DNA from: Escherichia phage FL38
Sequence record: PP400784
Length of the DNA: 64,000 bases
Strand: one strand, 5' to 3'
Shown: positions 5,471 to 63,608 of the stretch, in pieces
Position numbering within the stretch: position 1 is the stretch's first letter
How the letters are laid out: each line of letters opens with the position of its first letter
Position numbers and translations under genes: made by a program
The notes under the pieces: model-generated
Told to the model about the DNA's origin: nothing
Databases searched by the model: none
What the model saw: only the letters and a program-made list of their open reading frames with translations

Positions 5471-6610
5471 ATGACACAAGATATAGAATTACGCAATACT
5501 GGAATTAGGTTTGCGCATTTCGACGAAGACTCTGCGACATTTACCAGCATTTCAGAAAATAACTCTGTGATGTATAAGCTGGAAGTGCGCGGATCTAATG
5601 CGGATTCTACCAAACCAGCAAGGATTAGATTTAATGGAGTGGAGATCGTTGGCACTGGCTATGAAAATGGCCTAAATTTTAAAGTTCTTACTCCAACTGG
5701 ACAACTACACGAAGAAAAGGTATTCTATGGTCGCGGTGCTGTTTTGGCAATGCGTGATTATCTTTCTTTGCTGAAAGGTGACTATATCATTGCGATGGCA
5801 ACGCATGGAGAATTGTTTGCAGATCCGATCAGTGATGGTGTATTCTCTAAGCTGGGATCTGTATCATTCCCGAATCACATTTTGCTACAGCAAATGCCTC
5901 GTGTATCCTATGCAGCAATTTATTCTACTAAAATGGGTAAAATTGTGTGCGAAGGGATGCAAGCAACTCACGGGGAAGGACAAGATTCATCTATACAAAT
6001 TGAGAAAGTCTATGATACTATAGATGATCTTGCTATAACAGGAACACCACAACGATTTTTAGATTATCCGGTTGAGTATGTTAGCGAAGATTCCGAACAT
6101 TTCGAGCTAATACAATGGCCTCGTGATGAGACCAGCGCCCCACTTGAGGATTTTAACATAAAGGCAGGTGACAAACTATCAATATCCTTTGAATTGTTCC
6201 GTGATAGTGCCGCAGCCGCAGCCAACGTAACAGCGCGTTTCTATCACAACTACTTCACCGATGGACAATATCAAACTGGTGTTCGATACAATGCCAGCAA
6301 AAAAGACCAATGGGAAAAGTTTGAAGCCGTCTATACCGTACCGGAAGGAGTTGATAGTGTAGTAACTGGTTGTATCAGATATCCAACCAACTCCAATGAA
6401 GGTATTGTTAAAATTAGAAACATACTAATAACGCCGATCAGTGGAGTCGTCAAAACTACTGGTCCTACTTCATTTGGTGTTAATGGTGTTAGAACAACTC
6501 ATATTCAGGATAACGGTGATTTTACTAACCCTGTAATGAGTCTTCTTAAACTACCCAGAGATAATAAACACATCACATCCAACAACTTTAAAGAGTTCGA
6601 TGTTGATTAA
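5471..6610 (+). CDS. 35: long tail fibre hinge/connector gp35
   Basis: 379 aa (T4 gp35 is 372 aa), between 34 and 36. Confidence 0.75.
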   Translation: MTQDIELRNTGIRFAHFDEDSATFTSISENNSVMYKLEVRGSNADSTKPARIRFNGVEIVGTGYENGLNFKVLTPTGQLHEEKVFYGRGAVLAMRDYLSLLKGDYIIAMATHGELFADPISDGVFSKLGSVSFPNHILLQQMPRVSYAAIYSTKMGKIVCEGMQATHGEGQDSSIQIEKVYDTIDDLAITGTPQRFLDYPVEYVSEDSEHFELIQWPRDETSAPLEDFNIKAGDKLSISFELFRDSAAAAANVTARFYHNYFTDGQYQTGVRYNASKKDQWEKFEAVYTVPEGVDSVVTGCIRYPTNSNEGIVKIRNILITPISGVVKTTGPTSFGVNGVRTTHIQDNGDFTNPVMSLLKLPRDNKHITSNNFKEFDVD

Positions 6611-6622
6611 CATTTTTTAACA

Positions 6623-6652
6623 AGCCGATCCATGTGGTCGGCTTTATTTTTA
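6623..6652 (+). terminator. intrinsic terminator after gene 35
   Basis: AGCCGA-(9 nt)-TCGGCT stem followed by TTTATTTTTAT. Confidence 0.6.
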
Positions 6653-6773
6653 TACAGTTGGTTAAAATGTAACCAAAACGAAGAAAGATCTTTAGAATAA
6701 TAGAAAATTTGTTTCGGTTAAAAATTAGTCAGTGCCTACGGCACGTCGCGAAGCGATATTTTTGTTAACATTC

Positions 6774-6781
6774 TATAAATA
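6774..6781 (+). promoter_or_regulatory. T4-type late promoter motif TATAAATA upstream of gene 36
   Basis: Exact TATAAATA ~35 nt upstream of gp36 ATG. Confidence 0.5.
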
Positions 6782-6815: not shown

Positions 6816-8306
6816 ATGGCAGATTTGAAATATGGATCTACTGTAGGTGGATCTCCCATTTGGACGCAAGGAAACTTGACGATCCAGCCAGCGGGGGATC
6901 AGCTTTTCTACAAAGGTCATAAAATCTATACCGCTTTTGATAGACCTTCGGCTACCGATTTTGATGCTGTTAGTGCATCCGAAGGTGGCACATTTCAAAA
7001 GCAAGTTCATTTCGAGGAAGGTTTAAGCGTAGGTAGCGCATCGGCTGGAGAAACCAAAAAGAATGGTATCTTTAAAGGTCAGAGCGACGCTGCTAATTTT
7101 GACGGCGTAAGCTGGGGTTTGCATTCATGGAAGTCAATCGGCTTTGTTAATGCCCGTGATGGCGTTATTATGGCGTATATTGACACCACAACGGGCGAAT
7201 TTAAGTCTAAAGGGACTATCGAAGGGACAACCATTAAAGACACAGGTCAACGCGTCTATAGCCCTGTTAATAAACCAACGAATAATGATTTAGATTTGGT
7301 GTCTCGTCGCGGTGATACCCTCACAGGAACATATAATTTAAACACTGTCACTGTTAAACTATCGGTTGATTCGAAATTAATTGCAAGGGAACGTGATTTA
7401 ATTAATTTTGATGCGACTAAGATCTATTATGGTAACGTTCTTGACACGTTGGTCTTCCGAAGTAAAGATGAGCCTACCATTTTTGTTAATGACAGAGAAG
7501 GTCGTTTTTATCACACCAACAATAAACCAACTAAAGCCGATGTTGGACTAGGCAATGTCACCAATGATGCACAGGTTAAACGTGCTGGTGATATTATGGA
7601 AGGTAACTTGCAAGCGCCTAGAATGTTGGCGACAAACGATCCTGCTGGTCCTAATGAATTGGTTCGTTTGAGCTACTTTGAGAGAAAATCAATGGTAGCA
7701 AATCCAACCATCATTGGAAACGTTGATTGGAACACTCTTATTAATCGCGGTATCTATCGTGTGGAAAATGCTGGATCAGGTACTAATAAACCGTCTGATA
7801 GCTATTATAACGGCGTTTTGATGGTATATCGCCCAGAAGATGCTGTTGGTACTCGTCGAATTGTTCAGGTGTATTATCCTGAATCTATTGACCATCCGAT
7901 GTGCTGGCGTTCGTGTTCTAATGAATCATGGACTGCATGGAACTATGTAGATCACCGTAAATTGGCTGATATTCTCTATGTTAACGTCACTGGCGATACC
8001 ATGACAGGACCGTTAACTGTTCCGGCTGCAAACGGTGTTAGAACAGCTAAAACTAACTATAACGGGGATAACTGTTATGCGGCGTTAAGCGGTGCTGATG
8101 GTACTGCTATGATTCACCGCATTAGTGATATTAAAGGGACCGAAAAGCTGGGGATCACCCACGACTCAAAGGTCGTGTTTTTCCGTTCTCGAAACAATAC
8201 TCAAACCGTGGACCGCTATCAGCTTTATCATGAAGGTAATAAACCTACTCCGGCTGATGTTGGAGCGGTTCCACTTAATGCGGTGATTGATTTTGGTACT
8301 TTCTAA
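6816..8306 (+). CDS. 36: long tail fibre distal subunit gp36 (enlarged, 496 aa)
   Basis: N-terminus MADLKYGSTVGGSPIWTQGN matches the T4 gp36 N-terminus; position between 35 and 37. Confidence 0.75.
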   Translation: MADLKYGSTVGGSPIWTQGNLTIQPAGDQLFYKGHKIYTAFDRPSATDFDAVSASEGGTFQKQVHFEEGLSVGSASAGETKKNGIFKGQSDAANFDGVSWGLHSWKSIGFVNARDGVIMAYIDTTTGEFKSKGTIEGTTIKDTGQRVYSPVNKPTNNDLDLVSRRGDTLTGTYNLNTVTVKLSVDSKLIARERDLINFDATKIYYGNVLDTLVFRSKDEPTIFVNDREGRFYHTNNKPTKADVGLGNVTNDAQVKRAGDIMEGNLQAPRMLATNDPAGPNELVRLSYFERKSMVANPTIIGNVDWNTLINRGIYRVENAGSGTNKPSDSYYNGVLMVYRPEDAVGTRRIVQVYYPESIDHPMCWRSCSNESWTAWNYVDHRKLADILYVNVTGDTMTGPLTVPAANGVRTAKTNYNGDNCYAALSGADGTAMIHRISDIKGTEKLGITHDSKVVFFRSRNNTQTVDRYQLYHEGNKPTPADVGAVPLNAVIDFGTF

Positions 8307-15366: not shown

Positions 15367-15396
15367 ATTGTAGGGGATCGGCGATCCCCTGTCAAC
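15367..15396 (-). promoter_or_regulatory. early promoter with palindromic spacer (type I): GTTGACA-GGGGATCGCCGATCCCC-TACAAT
   Basis: Perfect 17-nt palindrome fills the -35/-10 spacer exactly. Confidence 0.6.
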
Positions 15397-15618: not shown

Positions 15619-15642
15619 GTGATTCTCCTTTCGTTTCGGTGT

Positions 15643-15678
15643 GGGAGTATGTTAATACTCCCATTTCTTTACGTCAAC
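15643..15678 (-). promoter_or_regulatory. early promoter with inverted repeat (type II): TTGACG-17 nt-TAACAT inside GGGAGTAT/ATACTCCC
   Basis: Seen on minus strand upstream of 15406..15618. Confidence 0.5.
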
Positions 15679-15684
15679 CAGTTT

Positions 15685-15927
15685 TTAGAAATTTTTCGCT
15701 TCTTCTTCGGTCATCATCACCGCGCATTCGTGCATAACTTTGAAAACCGGATCAATCATATCGAATGCTTCGCGGGACAGTTTACGAGAAGCGATTTTGA
15801 TTGCTTCTACGTCTTCTACTACAGGAACAAAAACAGTTTTCAGTTCATCGAGAACGGCAGCTTCTTTTTCATTCAGGAAGATACCAGCGTCATACAGTGC
15901 AACTTCGATAACATTAACTTTAACCAT
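15685..15927 (-). CDS. hypothetical protein (80 aa)
   Basis: ORF in dense minus-strand array. Confidence 0.5.
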   Translation of the reverse strand: MVKVNVIEVALYDAGIFLNEKEAAVLDELKTVFVPVVEDVEAIKIASRKLSREAFDMIDPVFKVMHECAVMMTEEEAKNF

Positions 15928-15966
15928 TTTAATTCCTCCAGTTCGTTTAGGTATGGGAGTATAATA

Positions 15967-16191
15967 CTACCGATGACCTTTGGCGTCAACTGCTTTTTTA
16001 TTATTTTCGTGAAAATTTTTCGTCGCCTCATGTGCTTTTCGCTGGGCTTCTTGTTGTGCTTGCTGGCGTGCTGCCTCTTGTGAAGCCATAACGGAAGCAT
16101 TTGCAGCAGTTACAGCCGCTACCATCGCTGCGGTATTAGCATTTACAGTACATGCACTAGCCAGCAAAGCAATTGCAATCATTTTCTTCAT
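15967..16191 (-). CDS. small secreted/lipoprotein-like protein (74 aa)
   Basis: Signal peptide MKKMIAIALLASAC with possible lipobox, Ala/Gln-rich. Confidence 0.5.
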   Translation of the reverse strand: MKKMIAIALLASACTVNANTAAMVAAVTAANASVMASQEAARQQAQQEAQRKAHEATKNFHENNKKAVDAKGHR

Positions 16192-16358
16192 AGTTTCCCC
16201 TTTAGGTTATCTTCGACCTTCACCCATTCCGCGTATTCTTGCGCGGCTACTTTCGGATTTAGTCCGTCTTCGTACATTGCTTCAAGTAATGCTTCGTCGG
16301 TGGGCTTATACCCTAGATAAGCCTCCACCTGATTTTTCCAAATTTTATACCAGTTCAT
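16188..16358 (-). CDS. hypothetical protein (start uncertain; internal ATG MNWYKIW chosen)
   Basis: Track ORF 16188..16427 overlaps the upstream gene by 65 nt; the internal ATG removes the overlap. Confidence 0.35.
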   Translation of the reverse strand: MNWYKIWKNQVEAYLGYKPTDEALLEAMYEDGLNPKVAAQEYAEWVKVEDNLKGKL

Positions 16359-16362
16359 ATTA

Positions 16363-16635
16363 TCACCAGTCAAGAGCGCGTGTCTCTGCGTCTTCCCATG
16401 CTTGATCCATAACAGCCTTGAAAACATATTCTAAAGTATCATCTTTAGAGAATCCGAAGACCTTAGACGGAATATCTTCAATTGCTACTCCCGCGACTTC
16501 TGCATTACGCGCTTGGCAATAATGCAACTCTAAGTTATCGAGATAGCGACCGCCTAATTTCTCCATATCATCCCAGCATTTCCAGTAACCTACTTTATTT
16601 GCAATCGCTAACACCTTGCTGTTTTCGTTGTTCAT
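16363..16635 (-). CDS. hypothetical protein (90 aa; start trimmed to MNNENSK)
   Basis: SD AAAGGAGAATCAAAG before the internal ATG; track N-terminal extension reads through the leader. Confidence 0.5.
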   Translation of the reverse strand: MNNENSKVLAIANKVGYWKCWDDMEKLGGRYLDNLELHYCQARNAEVAGVAIEDIPSKVFGFSKDDTLEYVFKAVMDQAWEDAETRALDW

Positions 16636-16703
16636 CTTTGATTCTCCTTTTGTTTGGTATGTGTGTATTATGCAATGATGGATTTGTGAAGTCAACAACT
16701 TTT

Positions 16704-16736
16704 TAAAATAAAAAAGCCGACCACACGGATCGGCTT
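16704..16736 (-). terminator. intrinsic terminator after 16746..17141
   Basis: Minus strand AAGCCGATCCGTGTGGTCGGCTT then TTTTTATTTT; near-identical to the plus-strand hairpin at 6623. Confidence 0.6.
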
Positions 16737-16745
16737 AATAATCAG

Positions 16746-17141
16746 TTACTTACTAAATTTCTTTTTGGCTTCGTCTACCGCATGAGATGCCAGTACCGCA
16801 GCCGCATGTGCACTTTTATCTGTGTTGCAGAGAACGCCCAGATAAACATCACGCCAAAGTTTAATCATCTCGTAGATCATATCAATATCATTTTCTTGTT
16901 TGTTGGCGATGCTATTCGTCGTTATCTGGTAAGATAACGGCTTGATCTGTACTGGTTCCGCCATCGGGCTAATCGGTTTCGGATCAGTCATAATAGGTGC
17001 TGTTGTGGGTGGTGTTTTCCATACGTCATTATTCCACGGTTTAATCGTTGTATCGTAAAGTTTATAAGGATTTTTGTCTGGATTAACCATCCAGGCATGA
17101 TGAGTACCCAAACCATTTGAAGTGATGCGTCGTTCAGTCAT
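16746..17141 (-). CDS. hypothetical protein (131 aa)
   Basis: ORF followed by terminator. Confidence 0.5.
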   Translation of the reverse strand: MTERRITSNGLGTHHAWMVNPDKNPYKLYDTTIKPWNNDVWKTPPTTAPIMTDPKPISPMAEPVQIKPLSYQITTNSIANKQENDIDMIYEMIKLWRDVYLGVLCNTDKSAHAAAVLASHAVDEAKKKFSK

Positions 17142-24076: not shown

Positions 24077-24141
24077 TATTAAATCCTCATAAACGAAAAG
24101 GGAGACTCCCATTATAGAGAATCTCCCTTGTATGTCAAGTG

Positions 24142-47491: not shown

Positions 47492-47581
47492 AGTCTCTTC
47501 CTCTCTTCGTTTTCGATGCTCTCACTATATCACAGAAAAATAAAAAGGGAAACCCCTTTCAGAGTCTCCCTTATAAAGCCA

Positions 47582-53917: not shown

Positions 53918-54466
53918 TTATTTTAAATTTTTTCGAATGTAGTCAGACCATTCCTTCCCTGTCAGTTCGGTCCCATTCTGGAAACTGAAATATTCATACG
54001 GCATCGAGTCAAGATAAAACAGGATCATACATCGCGCCATATAATACCAATCACGATTAAAGTAAACTACGTTATCACCAGTACCATCAACCCCTTTATC
54101 ATAACCATCGCGGGTACGGGCGACCCATTGAATAGTATCATTTTTCTCGCGGATCGTAACAGGTTCCCAATATCCAGCACATCCAGCATGACCACACGAA
54201 CAAGTCAGGAAATATTGACCTTTTGCTTTGTTGTCATCCCATTCACGATGGATTGGTTCGATCTCGTGAAACAGTGCTAAGCAATCATGATTATGCAACA
54301 CTGGCTTACCATCAATCAATGCATGGAATGTATACAAACGACCAGTAGACAAATAGCTATCCTCACGCTCAACCAGTTCAATAGCAATCTTTTTAGCTCG
54401 TTCTTTGTGTCGTTGTGCTTTACGCTTACGGTTTAATGATTTCATATTCACCTCACACATTATCAA
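53918..54466 (-). CDS. hypothetical protein (182 aa) with Cys cluster CSCGHAGCAGY
   Basis: ORF between nrdD and nrdG. Confidence 0.5.
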   Translation of the reverse strand: MIMCEVNMKSLNRKRKAQRHKERAKKIAIELVEREDSYLSTGRLYTFHALIDGKPVLHNHDCLALFHEIEPIHREWDDNKAKGQYFLTCSCGHAGCAGYWEPVTIREKNDTIQWVARTRDGYDKGVDGTGDNVVYFNRDWYYMARCMILFYLDSMPYEYFSFQNGTELTGKEWSDYIRKNLK

Positions 54467-55002
54467 AGGTCGCGATATAGTACATTATGAAAATGAGAAC
54501 TTGCATTACCAATATTGTAGATAATAAATTCTTCATCCGGCGCTTGCGCTACAAATTGAGTATGAGCAACCGCCACAACCTTAAAAATACGATCCGTGAT
54601 CTTGTGTTTAATTTCTGCCCCTACTTCCATAGGAACATATTCATTTGTTTCTGTTTCAGTCGCAAAACAGCCATCTTCTTCATAAGCACGAACAAATCGA
54701 TCGCAATCAGTACGCTTAACAAATTCAAGAGTATACAATTCTCGTGAATTGTCGGTATAGACCAATACAGAATTATTATGATAGCGAATCACATACAGGT
54801 TATTATCATCGTCAATTACGCAAAAGCTACGGATTCCTTCGCCTTGACTCCAGCAGATATTAACCACCGTTCCTCTAATAAAAAAACTTTCCTTTAAATT
54901 AAAACTAGTCAATGTGCTAGCGTGCATTTTAACAACAACACCATCGCCAATTTCCAGTTTACGAAGTTTAACTTCTTTGTTCAGTACACAAAACATCATC
55001 AT
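54463..55002 (-). CDS. hypothetical protein (179 aa)
   Basis: ORF; TTGACA-16 nt-TATAAT promoter upstream at about 55030-55058. Confidence 0.5.
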   Translation of the reverse strand: MMMFCVLNKEVKLRKLEIGDGVVVKMHASTLTSFNLKESFFIRGTVVNICWSQGEGIRSFCVIDDDNNLYVIRYHNNSVLVYTDNSRELYTLEFVKRTDCDRFVRAYEEDGCFATETETNEYVPMEVGAEIKHKITDRIFKVVAVAHTQFVAQAPDEEFIIYNIGNASSHFHNVLYRDL

Positions 55003-55069
55003 GTTGTCCTCTCGTTGTTTTCGATGTGAGCATTATACATTAGCTAATCATGTTGTCAACACCCCAAAA

Positions 55070-55097
55070 CGAAAAAGCCGACCCTTTCGGATCGGCT
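55070..55097 (-). terminator. intrinsic terminator after nrdD
   Basis: Minus strand AGCCGATCCGAAAGGGTCGGCT then TTTTTC; same arm sequence as hairpins at 6623 and 16714. Confidence 0.55.
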
Positions 55098-55102
55098 GAA
55101 AA

Positions 55103-56965
55103 TTACATGTGCTTAACGCGGTTTACCATCTCGGAGTGTTTCCCGTGGTTAAATGGACGCAGATCAACAGATCCAAGATATCCACTAACGCGACGGATAA
55201 CATTCATCTTTTCCAGATTGTCATTGCCGCAATCAGGGCAAACAAAACCAGACTCGGTCGCTCTCATTTCCTTATTAGATCCGCATACATGACATACATC
55301 AGAAGGAGTATTAACACCGAAGTAGTGCAATTTATCCATTGCATAGTCTACTACAGTTTCAAGACCTTTCAGGTTGTTTTTCATGTCTGGGAACTCAACA
55401 TAAGAGATCATGCCACCGGACGCCAGCCAGTGATAATCTTTCTCAAAGTCGATTTTCTCAAATGGTGTGACTTTCCGGTCTACGTCAAGGTGGAATGAGT
55501 TGGTGTACCAGTCTTTATCGGTAGCACCCTTAACAATACCAAATTTCTCTCTGTCCAGTCGATTAAATCGATAGCAAAGACTCTCGGCTGGCGTACCGTA
55601 AAGACTAAACCCAAGTCCGGTTTCGTCCTTCCATTTTTCAGTATAATGACGCAAGATCTTAAGAATATGTTTACCGTATCGCTGCGCATCTTCCGAATCA
55701 AACGGATGAACACCAAACAGGACGCTCAATACCTCATGTAAACCAATATATCCAAGAGAGATACTAGCGCGACCATCTTTCAGCACTTCCAAAATTTCAT
55801 CGTTTTGATGAATACGGAAAAATGCACCTTCGGTATACAGTACAGGAGCAACATTGGCTTTAGCCCCTTTTAAAGCGTCTACGCGACTCATAAGCGCATC
55901 AAAACAAATAGGCAGACGATTCGCTAGCTCTTGTTCGAATAGCTCAATTCTGCGCATTACAGACGCTTTACCAGCACGACGCGCGGCAATAAGGGCAATA
56001 CGCGGAAGATTCAGAGTCACAACACCTAAGTTATTACGTCCGTCTAATACTTCTTCGCCTTTCTCATTATGCCACACACCCAGGAAGCTACGACAACCCA
56101 TCGGGCTAACCGGAACACTAGATCCAGTGATGCTACGGTTATTCTTCGCAGAGATATAATCAGGGTAAAGACGCTTACTCGAACATTCCAATGCAAGTTG
56201 CTTAATGTCGTAGTTCGGATCTTCCGGTTTAAGGTTTAATCCTTCTTCTAAGAACATCACCAGCTTAGGAAACACCGGAGTTATACCGTCTTTACCTAAA
56301 CCTTTAGTTCGAACTTTCAGGATCGCTTTCTGAATCAGTTTTTCTTCCCAGCTAGTACCCATACCAAAGGTTAAAGTCACAAAAGGCGTTTGACCGTTGG
56401 TGGAGAACAAAGTGTTGATTTCATATTCCAACGCTTGATACCCGTCTAAAGTTTCTTTTTCTGTCTTCTCTTGTGCATAGAGAGTATCAGCTTTGATTCC
56501 GTAGGTTTCGGCATCAGCAAGGTGTTTATGATATGTTTTCTCAACGTATGGCGCTAAAACCTGATCGATGTTTGCAATTGTGGTCCCGCCATATTGATGA
56601 CTTGCCACCTGTGCGATAATTTGAGCGGTTACAGCACAAGCAACGCCGATTGATTTCGGACTTTCGATTTGTGCGCTACCCAATTTAAAACCATTCTCTA
56701 ACATGTCTTTGAGATTAACAAGACAGCAGTTAGTAAACGGCATAGCTGGTGCATAATCCATATCATGATAATGAATATCACCGTCTACATGCGCTTTATA
56801 GATGTGCTCAGGTAACACGGTTTTAGCAATCTGTTTAGACACAGCGCCAGCAATCAGATCTCGACGTGTCGGGAATGTTCGCGCGTCTTTGTTCGCGTTC
56901 TCTTTGCTTACTTCGTTTTCTTTACCCGTTGCGATCTCTGTAATGTCTTTGATTAGTTTTTCCAT
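55103..56965 (-). CDS. nrdD: anaerobic ribonucleoside-triphosphate reductase (glycyl radical enzyme)
   Basis: 620 aa; C-terminal zinc ribbon CHVCG...CPDCGN and glycyl-radical motif RVSGYLG. Confidence 0.95.
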   Translation of the reverse strand: MEKLIKDITEIATGKENEVSKENANKDARTFPTRRDLIAGAVSKQIAKTVLPEHIYKAHVDGDIHYHDMDYAPAMPFTNCCLVNLKDMLENGFKLGSAQIESPKSIGVACAVTAQIIAQVASHQYGGTTIANIDQVLAPYVEKTYHKHLADAETYGIKADTLYAQEKTEKETLDGYQALEYEINTLFSTNGQTPFVTLTFGMGTSWEEKLIQKAILKVRTKGLGKDGITPVFPKLVMFLEEGLNLKPEDPNYDIKQLALECSSKRLYPDYISAKNNRSITGSSVPVSPMGCRSFLGVWHNEKGEEVLDGRNNLGVVTLNLPRIALIAARRAGKASVMRRIELFEQELANRLPICFDALMSRVDALKGAKANVAPVLYTEGAFFRIHQNDEILEVLKDGRASISLGYIGLHEVLSVLFGVHPFDSEDAQRYGKHILKILRHYTEKWKDETGLGFSLYGTPAESLCYRFNRLDREKFGIVKGATDKDWYTNSFHLDVDRKVTPFEKIDFEKDYHWLASGGMISYVEFPDMKNNLKGLETVVDYAMDKLHYFGVNTPSDVCHVCGSNKEMRATESGFVCPDCGNDNLEKMNVIRRVSGYLGSVDLRPFNHGKHSEMVNRVKHM

Positions 56966-57563: not shown

Positions 57564-58737
57564 CACTAACTTTTTTCTTTACTGCTTTCACCTTCTGGCG
57601 AATTGCTCGAATCTCTTCGATCTCTTTTTCAGTCTCTTTAACAATTTCTTTGCGATTCTGAATATCTGTATCTAGATTATCATCAAGTTTAGGCAGCATG
57701 TCAATCAAGAACTTTTTAAAGTCTTTCAGGTTTCGGATAACAGCACCTTCACCCATTACCGCCACGCCTACACCATCCGGCAGATCACCAAACAGCTTAA
57801 CCAGTTCAGACAGATGATCATGATCTTCTAGTGCTTCTTCCGGTTCAGATGGCAGTTCAACAAAGTTATAACGTTCATCATTGCTGATCAGGTGATACCA
57901 GCAAAGCCCAAAAGATTTAGGAGTATATTCTACACCACCAACTTCAACTGCGTCAACACTTCCGAAAGAATCTACTTTAGTTACCTTAAATCCATGTTCC
58001 AGCGTTTTAATAATTTCAATAACATGACTGGATACGGTTTCAGTATTAAACCAATGAGGCAAATTATGTGGATTTGGCTTGTATCGTTCGCCTACTTTAA
58101 ATCTCTGACCACGCTCTTGCATACGGACATATTCAACTCGCGTGATTTCCGCGAAGTATTCAAATTCGCTACCGTCAAACAAGCAATTCCATTGATCACA
58201 AAAACGGTCCGCCTTGACGGTTTCACCTTTCGCGGTGATCATGGTAGCTGATCCGTGCAATTCTTCTTCAACTAAAAAGCCATATTCGACAAAATCAACA
58301 AGTTTCATGGCTTCTTTGTGCTCTGGGTCATGCTCTCCCCAGAATCGCTTAAATTCTTGCAAACCTTCTGGGGTAAACGAATAACATTTACCTTTTTCAA
58401 AGTAAGTCGGCATTGCATCCTCTTTCTTGTTCATCGCTTCGTATGCCTCTTTTGAGATACGTTTAAAGTATTTGCGCTCATTGTGCATAATCATAGTAGA
58501 CCAATAATAAACGATATCCTCAGCGGAATAAACTACATCTCCAGCTTCAATAGTAATAACATGACCGTGGTCATCTTTTTCTAATACTTTAAAGCCCTTT
58601 TCTACGATTTCAGCAACCCGAATATGACCACGGCGCGAAGCATCGGTCAGAATAATTGAATAGCGAGAAAAGTCTAGAAACTCATCTTTACCGCCTTCAC
58701 GGAATGCATAGTAATGACCTTCAAAGAATTTAGCCAT
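57559..58737 (-). CDS. repeat-domain family protein (3 tandem domains + helical tail)
   Basis: Three units each with F.xG.YY...GFKV...ERKYF/ERYNF, then tail with NLKDFKKFLIDMLP. Confidence 0.6.
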   Translation of the reverse strand: MAKFFEGHYYAFREGGKDEFLDFSRYSIILTDASRRGHIRVAEIVEKGFKVLEKDDHGHVITIEAGDVVYSAEDIVYYWSTMIMHNERKYFKRISKEAYEAMNKKEDAMPTYFEKGKCYSFTPEGLQEFKRFWGEHDPEHKEAMKLVDFVEYGFLVEEELHGSATMITAKGETVKADRFCDQWNCLFDGSEFEYFAEITRVEYVRMQERGQRFKVGERYKPNPHNLPHWFNTETVSSHVIEIIKTLEHGFKVTKVDSFGSVDAVEVGGVEYTPKSFGLCWYHLISNDERYNFVELPSEPEEALEDHDHLSELVKLFGDLPDGVGVAVMGEGAVIRNLKDFKKFLIDMLPKLDDNLDTDIQNRKEIVKETEKEIEEIRAIRQKVKAVKKKVSA

Positions 58738-59378: not shown

Positions 59379-59707
59379 TTCACTAATTGAACAGCACGGA
59401 ACAGAATGCGCTCACACGGAAGCAGCATAAATTCCCAACGCGGATCAAAGTCTTTAGCGGTGTATGTTTTCCCATCAACCGAGATTTCACTTACATAACC
59501 AACAGGTGACACTTTAAGAACAGTAAACCCATTCTTGATGACTTCGTAGGTATATTTCACCCCTTCGTATTCATCATCTAAGAAGTCTTTATGTGCTTGC
59601 TCAGATTTAAAAACATAGGCAACACCGGATTTAAACATCTTACGCATTGTTGATTCTCCTTCTTGATTAGATGGGAGTATTTTACTACTCCCATTTCTTA
59701 TTGTCAA
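59375..59707 (-). CDS. repeat-domain family protein (single domain, no tail)
   Basis: MFKSGVAYVF...GFTVLKV...ERILFRAV. Confidence 0.55.
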   Translation of the reverse strand: MTIRNGSSKILPSNQEGESTMRKMFKSGVAYVFKSEQAHKDFLDDEYEGVKYTYEVIKNGFTVLKVSPVGYVSEISVDGKTYTAKDFDPRWEFMLLPCERILFRAVQLVK

Positions 59708-63578: not shown

Positions 63579-63608
63579 AGTATAGGGGATCACCGATCCC
63601 CTGTCAAC
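63579..63608 (-). promoter_or_regulatory. early promoter with palindromic spacer (type I): GTTGACA-GGGGATCGGTGATCCCC-TATACT
   Basis: Perfect 17-nt palindrome as spacer. Confidence 0.6.

Follow-up and report, generated by a model that had tools for sequence, protein, structure and literature searches.

Why should one terminator-like hairpin recur behind gene 35, behind a small ORF and behind nrdD, on both strands of a phage genome? An initial annotation of a 64,000-nucleotide stretch of Escherichia phage FL38 (PP400784; hereafter the window) had raised this question and proposed a portable terminator module. With an identity of 98-99% to phages of Krischvirus (kaaroe, RB49, Phi1, JSE, ECD7, and others), the window belongs to an RB49/Phi1-like T4-type phage, and it is colinear with Phi1 143,277-164,270 plus 1-43,045. 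We favor, with a probability of roughly 70%, the reading that the three hairpins (s1, s2, and s3) are intrinsic terminators, that s2 and s3 are parts of PeSL cassettes, that the hairpins are alike through recombinational copying of cassettes combined with purifying selection on the stem, and that s1 is a lone representative of this hairpin lineage.

A pattern search of the window for AGCCGA-N6-12-TCGGCT returned exactly three matches, at positions 6623-6643, 16715-16735, and 55076-55097, with 0 expected from 100 dinucleotide shuffles of the window, which bears out the presence of three near-identical hairpins on the two strands. A stricter pattern allowing up to 3 mismatches matched only s1 and s2, with 0.03 matches expected. 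On the transcribed strand, s1 (6622-6644, plus strand) reads AAGCCGATCCATGTGGTCGGCTT, i.e., AAGCCGAUC-CAUGU-GGUCGGCUU as RNA, and runs into the tail TATTTTTATA (6645-6654), which the TT of the stem precedes. Likewise, s2 (16714-16736, minus strand) reads AAGCCGATCCGTGTGGTCGGCTT, i.e., AAGCCGAUC-CGUGU-GGUCGGCUU, followed by TTTTATTTTA (16713-16704), and s3 (55076-55097, minus strand) reads AGCCGATCCGAAAGGGTCGGCT, i.e., AGCCGAUCC-GAAA-GGGUCGGCU, followed by TTTTCGTTTT (55075-55066). The hairpins s1 and s2 are identical at 22 of 23 positions and have a common loop frame, C-N-N-G-U. The location of the hairpins is also as first described: s1 starts 11 nt after the TAA of gene 35 (5471-6610, plus strand), s2 starts 9 nt after that of the ORF267 homologue (16746-17141, minus strand, 131 aa), and s3 starts 5 nt after that of nrdD (55103-56965, minus strand). 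Synteny places s1 in the spacer of genes 35 and 36, s2 in that of ORF267 and ORF266, and s3 in that of nrdD and ORF055.

All three sequences are predicted to fold into a 9-bp stem that includes one U.G pair, closed by a 5-nt loop in s1 and s2 and by a GAAA tetraloop in s3. The stem had initially been given as AGCCGA/TCGGCT with loops of 8 to 10 nt; that stem is present, but the helix extends further, the loops comprise only 4 to 5 nt, and the third loop had been written in the plus-strand orientation rather than as transcribed. The 45-nt stretches of s1, s2, and s3 have folding energies of -12.6, -12.5, and -16.6 kcal/mol (z = -3.3 to -4.1), and the three sites rank top in terminator scans. 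T-rich tails are found on the transcribed side, as had been noted, and on that side alone; the antisense sides are not T-rich. The antisense hairpins of s1 and s2 are nearly as stable as the sense hairpins (-11.6 versus -12.0). We considered the U.G wobble as a determinant of orientation or as a signature of the family and discarded it on account of these near-equal energies and of an enrichment over background that was not significant. It is the U-tract that sets the orientation of the hairpin.

The three sites thus combine a stable, GC-rich, short-loop hairpin with a 3′ U-tract at a gene-oriented 3′-end position. Canonical Rho-independent terminators, including those with the stable tetraloops C(GAAA)G and C(UUCG)G that Tuerk and coworkers in 1988 and d'Aubenton Carafa and coworkers in 1990 are said to have treated, reportedly have this design. 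The resemblance to terminators of the Escherichia coli or T4 type extends to the GC-rich 9-bp stem, the short loop (of the GNRA type in s3), the U-tract directly 3′ of it, and the position just past a stop codon. Nothing mechanistic distinguishes the hairpins described here; what differs is that one stem recurs three to four times per genome, within a lineage-enriched AGCC...GGCU family. Public records contain independent predictions to the same effect: s1 is annotated as an ARNOLD terminator in the GenBank records of G2248 and G37-3, s2 is annotated as a terminator in several Krischvirus records, and s3 is so annotated in G37-3, TB34, Makalu_001, and Makalu_003. A literature search for transcript mapping in Krischvirus returned none. 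As far as can be judged from sequence, the initial view of these elements as terminators holds, given the hairpin and U-tract past a stop codon, the invariant stems described below, and the ARNOLD predictions, and we infer that they terminate transcription. The hairpins had no Rfam match at gathering or permissive thresholds.

Short-query BLAST located s1, s2, s3, and a fourth copy at the same positions in 57 to 62 Krischvirus records each, and returned only marginal, partial matches outside Krischvirus. The s2 hairpin was present in all of about 60 such records and s3 in 58. Among about 58 genomes, the three hairpins and the fourth copy occupied the same positions and showed no polymorphism in presence or absence, and the three window sites showed none in copy number or position. 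In an alignment of 13 genomes, none of the 18 columns of the s1 stem was variable, as against 96 of the 205 other columns of the spacer (Fisher p = 3e-5), and two of the five loop positions varied, the loop being CAUGU or CUCGU. The letters of the s2 stem are identical in 13 of 13 genomes, an apparent count of 2 variable columns out of 18 being a gap artefact in the T-run, and its loops are CGUGU, CUUGU, or CUAGU. Metagenomic relatives of about 85% identity retain both stems. Recent gene conversion between s1 and s2 was rejected, as no genome has a loop common to both sites. We also observed that the terminator behind ORF165 (Phi1 99150-99169) has the loops TTTG, TTGT, and TTCT across genomes; at s1, s2, and this site, loop variants arise in genomes that elsewhere share about 97% identity, with the stems frozen.

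Stems that are wholly invariant in 13 genomes and in relatives of about 85% identity, with no compensatory substitutions among orthologues and with the same U.G pair in all three hairpins, are also what one would expect if a phage or host factor, such as an RNA-binding protein, a processing nuclease, or an antiterminator, read the stem sequence and thereby marked a set of co-regulated 3′ ends. We regard such sequence-specific recognition as very improbable. At so short a divergence, structural selection alone predicts invariance, the U.G enrichment over background is not significant, and the loops vary freely. The four sites, moreover, lie behind functionally unrelated genes, both early and late, and many terminators of the genome have other stems. 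We know of no candidate factor.

What accounts for the likeness of the sites to one another? For RB49 and Phi1, about 50 PeSLs per genome have been described, each consisting of a near-consensus sigma70 early promoter and a terminator stem-loop, and they have been called a "mobile regulatory cassette" (Arbiol et al. 2010, PMC2839356). In that article, 51-52 PeSLs are listed for RB49/Phi1; they occupy the spacer from a stop codon to the next SD/ATG, are alike over about 100 nt, adjoin genes that differ between RB49 and Phi1, and recombine into mini-circles (PMC2839356). A subclass whose stem-loop lies upstream of -35 is defined there, nrdD and hoc are named as PeSL-associated genes, and terminator activity is reported for one stem-loop, PeSL211/210, of a sequence class other than that of s1 to s3 (PMC2839356). 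The typical stem-loop of RB49/Phi1 PeSLs is given as Gn-loop-Cn (PMC2839356; Comeau et al. 2014, PMC4122927).

The sites of s2 and s3 match this description feature by feature. Both are cassettes of about 100 nt in which a stop codon, the hairpin, a U-tract within an AT-rich stretch, -35 and -10 boxes, a similar leader, an SD sequence, and an ATG follow one another, with 16 to 18 nt of T/A-rich sequence between the end of the hairpin and the -35 box. At s2, the predicted early promoter (16667-16695, minus strand) is of the sigma70 type, with TTGACT, a 17-nt spacer, and CATAAT (10 of 12 consensus positions), and the cassette ends at the SD sequence GGAG and the ATG (16633-16647, minus strand) of the ORF266 homologue (16363-16635); it is in this zone that homology to other genomes is lost. 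At s3, TTGACA, a 16-nt spacer, and TATAAT (55032-55059, minus strand) form a 12-of-12 sigma70 consensus, followed by the SD-like GAGAGGA and the ATG (55000-55013, minus strand) of the ORF055 homologue (54463-55002). Similarity among s2, s3, and the fourth copy is significant across promoter and leader, the scores being reached by 0 to 5 of 500 shuffles. The further points of likeness are that these cassettes come from the same phage genus, that their group is tied to gene replacement and indels between close relatives, that the PeSL-associated nrdD is the gene preceding s3, and that a PeSL spacer, ORF194-195, carries the variant hairpin. Their stems differ from the Gn-loop-Cn form, a frequent and not obligatory trait of PeSLs, in that those of s1 to s3 are AGCCGAUC.../...GGUCGGCU. 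On this anatomy, we consider s2 and s3 to be probable PeSLs, with s2 and s3 as their stem-loops.

PeSLs of the classical Gn-loop-Cn kind were also observed in the window, at 15367-15395 and at about 63579-63607 (both minus strand). They read TTGACA, GGGGATCgccGATCCCC, TACAAT, with the stem-loop between the -35 box and the -10 box, and the two copies are almost identical. Related hairpins of the form AAGGGAGA(T/C)TCT...CCCTT are located at 24099-24128 (minus strand; promoter 24138-24111) and 47545-47572 (minus strand); the former has a TATAAT -10 box in its loop and corresponds to a PeSL subclass in which the stem-loop overlaps the -10 box. Other minus-strand sites were found at 15642-15663 and 59671-59694, with promoters at 15677-15649 and 59707-59679.

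The s1 site is different, in that it has no early promoter, belongs to a late operon, that of the tail fibre, and lies on the opposite strand. The best sigma70 match next to it reaches 8 of 12 positions, and what follows instead is a late promoter box, TATAAATA (6774-6781, plus strand), for gene 36 (6816-8306). The flanks of s1, s2, and s3 do not align with one another, and the hairpin, 23 nt at s1, is the sole part in common. In shuffle tests, the downstream flank of s1 showed no significant similarity to the s2 and s3 cassettes; its score against the fourth copy was reached by 6 of 500 shuffles, a figure that concerns score alone. The possibility that s1 is a decayed PeSL is not supported, as its flank is not significantly similar to the s2 and s3 cassettes and has no -35/-10 boxes. 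Thus, s1 is not a PeSL, and we take it to be a solitary predicted intrinsic terminator behind gene 35.

Directly behind s1 lies a repeated intergenic element of about 110 nt (6658-6766, plus strand), present as a single copy within the window. It contains the palindromes TTGGTTA-N5-TAACCAA and AAAGATCTTT; the spacer of the former varies between copies, and its arms are conserved or compensated. The fold of the element is moderate (z of about -2.7), and it had no match in Rfam. Its other copies were located in Phi1 and RB49: an inverted, 93%-identical copy lies upstream of late gene 3 (Phi1 62585-62478, minus strand), and two copies of about 80% identity follow ORF165 (Phi1 99105-99019 and 98954-98885, minus strand), the first of them directly behind another AGCC-type terminator. 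The element may be a small RNA or protein-binding DNA.

Two further observations concern this spacer. A "hypothetical protein" of 29 to 31 aa has been annotated from an ATG in the s1 loop (CCATGTGG; window 6631 onward, plus strand) in PQ351811 (SSG23) and OR896825 (Delraymugoa); only genomes with this variant of the loop contain it, and the annotation is probably spurious. In addition, the genome of LF73P4 (OZ035795.1) is rearranged relative to Phi1, with junctions at about 37.6, 56.8, and 83 k that overlap short repeats. One pairs the PeSL211/210 spacer with the ORF070/071 spacer, and another, which begins 14 nt past s1, pairs the 110-nt repeat of the gene 35-gene 36 spacer with the copy upstream of gene 3. 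These junctions may reflect real recombination at repeats or an assembly error.

Direct signs of exchange were found at two of the cassettes. At s2, conservation of the cassette extends to the start codon, after which three unrelated ORFs occur in different genomes: a 90-aa ORF of the ORF266 type in the window, Phi1, RB49, G2248, JSE, Delraymugoa, and KFS-EC; a 70- to 75-aa ORF in ECD7-like phages and ERZ1034939; and a 68-aa ORF in two uncultured contigs as well as in G37-3 and SSG23. The point at which homology is lost lies either shortly past the -10 box or in the SD-ATG spacer, i.e., there are at least two breakpoints within the cassette, so that several independent exchanges have taken place. 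No gene replacement was seen at s3 in four complete genomes.

The other such cassette carries the fourth hairpin, whose variant sequence is AGCCGACCTTAG(C/T)GTCGGCT and which lies beyond the window, between ORF197 and ORF194; whole-genome searches found exactly four hairpins of the AGCCGA class in Phi1 and in an RB49-type genome. RB49 has two copies of the variant hairpin with its promoter, arranged as a direct repeat (GCCGACCTTAGTGTCGGCTTTTTT...) around about 500 nt missing from Phi1 and LF73P4, and the single variant cassette of Phi1 is a chimera of the two found in RB49. ORFs 195, 196, and 196.1 are listed as unique to RB49 in the published comparison, where the ORF194-195 spacer is named as a PeSL and appears as a crossover partner in a sequenced mini-circle (PMC2839356). 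As that spacer carries the variant hairpin, at least one published PeSL has a hairpin of the AGCCGA class as its stem-loop. In addition, the window between 10258 and 16201 appeared hyperplastic relative to Phi1 153.5-159.5 k, with several indels or replacements, including a segment of about 500 nt (15698-16201) missing from Phi1.

Lambdoid morons, discussed in the same article, consist of a gene equipped with a promoter and a terminator of its own (PMC2839356). The loci described here resemble them in that small genes are bracketed by a promoter and a terminator between conserved genes, as are the alternative ORFs behind the s2 cassette; they differ in that the conserved cassette here is the site of exchange.

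Boundaries of gene replacements and indels within or beside hairpin-bearing cassettes, the LF73P4 junctions at intergenic repeats, one beginning 14 nt after s1, and the near-equal stability of the two orientations of s1 and s2 could also speak for a function other than termination, at the level of DNA or in the stabilization of RNA 3′ ends: the hairpins might act as recombination hot spots, as cruciform targets, or in protection against exonucleases. We find such a role hard to credit. Read in the direction of the gene, every hairpin closely follows a stop codon, the U-tracts occur at all sites on the transcribed side only, and the s2 breakpoints map downstream of the -10 box and in the SD-ATG spacer, outside the hairpin; as for the LF73P4 junctions, they may be assembly errors.

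The hairpins are the tightest subset of a wider family. A catalogue of hairpins followed by a T-tract in Phi1 comprised 52 raw sites, and 14 of these 52 predicted terminators have an AGCC...GGCU clamp. The family scaffold, found at 13 sites on both strands, is A(A)GCC, one or two variable pairs, (U)CC, a tetraloop, GG(G), and GGCU(U). Twelve of 13 family sites are located 4 to 11 nt past a stop codon; for the remaining member, at 58424, the filter found no ORF end. The next element is a strong sigma70 promoter at eight sites, including those after nrdD and hoc, a late promoter at two sites (plus strand), and neither at three. By comparison, 1 Mb of unrelated viral DNA yielded 198 predicted terminators, of which only 7 have the AGCC clamp (p = 2e-6), and the first 50 kb of T4 has none among 4. 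For the lineage specificity of the family, the main support is the environmental viral comparison, since the T4 control contains only four terminators; a T4-like control sought via gp43 loci returned only close relatives. RB43-like phages have AGCC...GGCU hairpins with other cores after nrdD.

We also observed that, by equal criteria, positions 1-50,000 of T4 contain only 4 strong hairpin-plus-T-tract sites versus about 16 in positions 1-50,000 of Phi1. RB49-like phages thus seem much richer than T4 in strong intrinsic terminators.

The AGCCGA stem is not confined to phages of this genus. A scan of IMG/VR with the 16-base stem pattern matched at least 120 contigs, mostly unrelated among the matches listed. 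The AGCCGA stem is a common terminator solution, and the IMG/VR matches are no evidence of transfer. The exact 23-mer occurs in Campylobacter, in terminators of unrelated bacteria, and in actinobacterial contigs, where its context looks coding and has no T-tract; the s3 hairpin is also found as a terminator in unrelated bacteria and phages. The most plausible reading of the matches in unrelated bacteria is that they arose independently within a very large pool of terminators, and as the 23-mer arises independently there, sequence identity alone is no proof of transfer. We rejected the idea of a widely mobile element for the reason that the occurrences of the 23-mer in metagenomes and bacterial genomes are independent, and that of an origin from the host on the basis of absence from 5424 of 5426 E. 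coli genomes. As a separate observation, the 23-mer AAGCCGATCCGTGTGGTCGGCTT was found in a conserved, Campylobacter-like context (ctttacaAAGCC...GGCTTgataaagtctgcgc) without a T-tract on contigs L148, L150-L153, L156, L163-L166, L168, and L176; there was no Rfam match on L148.

Could the three terminators then have reached one favored design of this lineage, with an A-tract, a GCC clamp, CC-tetraloop-GG, and a U-tract, independently and with no copying between sites? Such convergence would fit the presence of AGCC...GGCU in 14 of the 52 Phi1 predicted terminators, which makes half of the common stem generic to the lineage, as well as the recurrence of the 23-mer and of the s3 hairpin in unrelated organisms, the unrelated flanks of s1, and the different cores after nrdD in RB43-like phages. 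We nevertheless hold it to be unlikely. Even given the AGCC clamp, the occurrence of the same next four bases in 3 of 13 members has a p value of about 0.004. The near-identity of s1 and s2 extends to the common loop frame, the promoter and leader similarity of s2, s3, and the fourth copy is significant, and duplication of a cassette is directly visible at the ORF195-196.1 locus of RB49.

Recombinational copying of cassettes, followed by selection on the stem, therefore remains our preferred account. The hairpins would be Rho-independent terminators that insulate adjacent transcription units of an RB49-like phage: s1 would close the late transcript of genes 34-35 upstream of gene 36's own late promoter, s2 would end an early transcript before the next early promoter (ORF267 to ORF266), and s3 would do the same between nrdD and ORF055. 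Cassettes of about 100 nt would be copied and exchanged through homologous recombination of the phage, with the cassette, including the hairpin, serving as a patch of homology; the crossover patch proper may be the hairpin or the promoter part. After copying, selection would hold every base of the stem while the loops drift. As to s1, we infer that it belongs to this hairpin lineage as a solitary copy, situated in a late operon on the opposite strand. More generally, our observations suggest that RB49-like phages acquire terminators largely through copying and to a lesser extent de novo.

A bolder version of this account would make the AGCC...GGCU hairpins a distinct, self-propagating terminator lineage with at least 13 sites per genome, on both strands and in early and late regions, whose hairpin and U-tract serve as the crossover patch in short-homology or factor-assisted recombination; s1 and the 110-nt repeat would then represent a second, late-region type of shuffling cassette beyond the PeSL concept. 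We consider this version doubtful.

The proposal of a portable module holds in part, in that s2 and s3 lie in reused cassettes of about 100 nt that bear signs of recombination, namely, the three alternative ORFs at s2 and the duplicated variant cassette of RB49. It does not hold for the hairpin alone: the positions are fixed in about 58 genomes, s1 shares just 23 nt with the other sites, and the 23-mer occurs independently elsewhere. The fixed positions and the 23-nt s1 unit, devoid of flanking repeats, likewise do not correspond to a mobile repeat of the REP or MITE type. The portable module is already published for RB49/Phi1 as the PeSLs, and the sites are already publicly annotated as terminators. 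What is modestly new is that PeSL cassettes and a late-operon terminator have one stem-loop class in common and that the AGCC...GGCU family is lineage enriched, with varying loops and frozen stems; the neighboring 110-nt repeat is the other new element.

The hairpins would mark boundaries of transcription units and, at two sites, cassettes that are prone to recombination and act as drivers of gene shuffling among RB49-like therapeutic coliphages. Their importance beyond good annotation is small. They may be of use in avoiding spurious gene calls, such as the small ORF starting in the s1 loop, and in predicting where accessory genes are swapped, as exemplified by the three alternative ORFs behind the s2 cassette.
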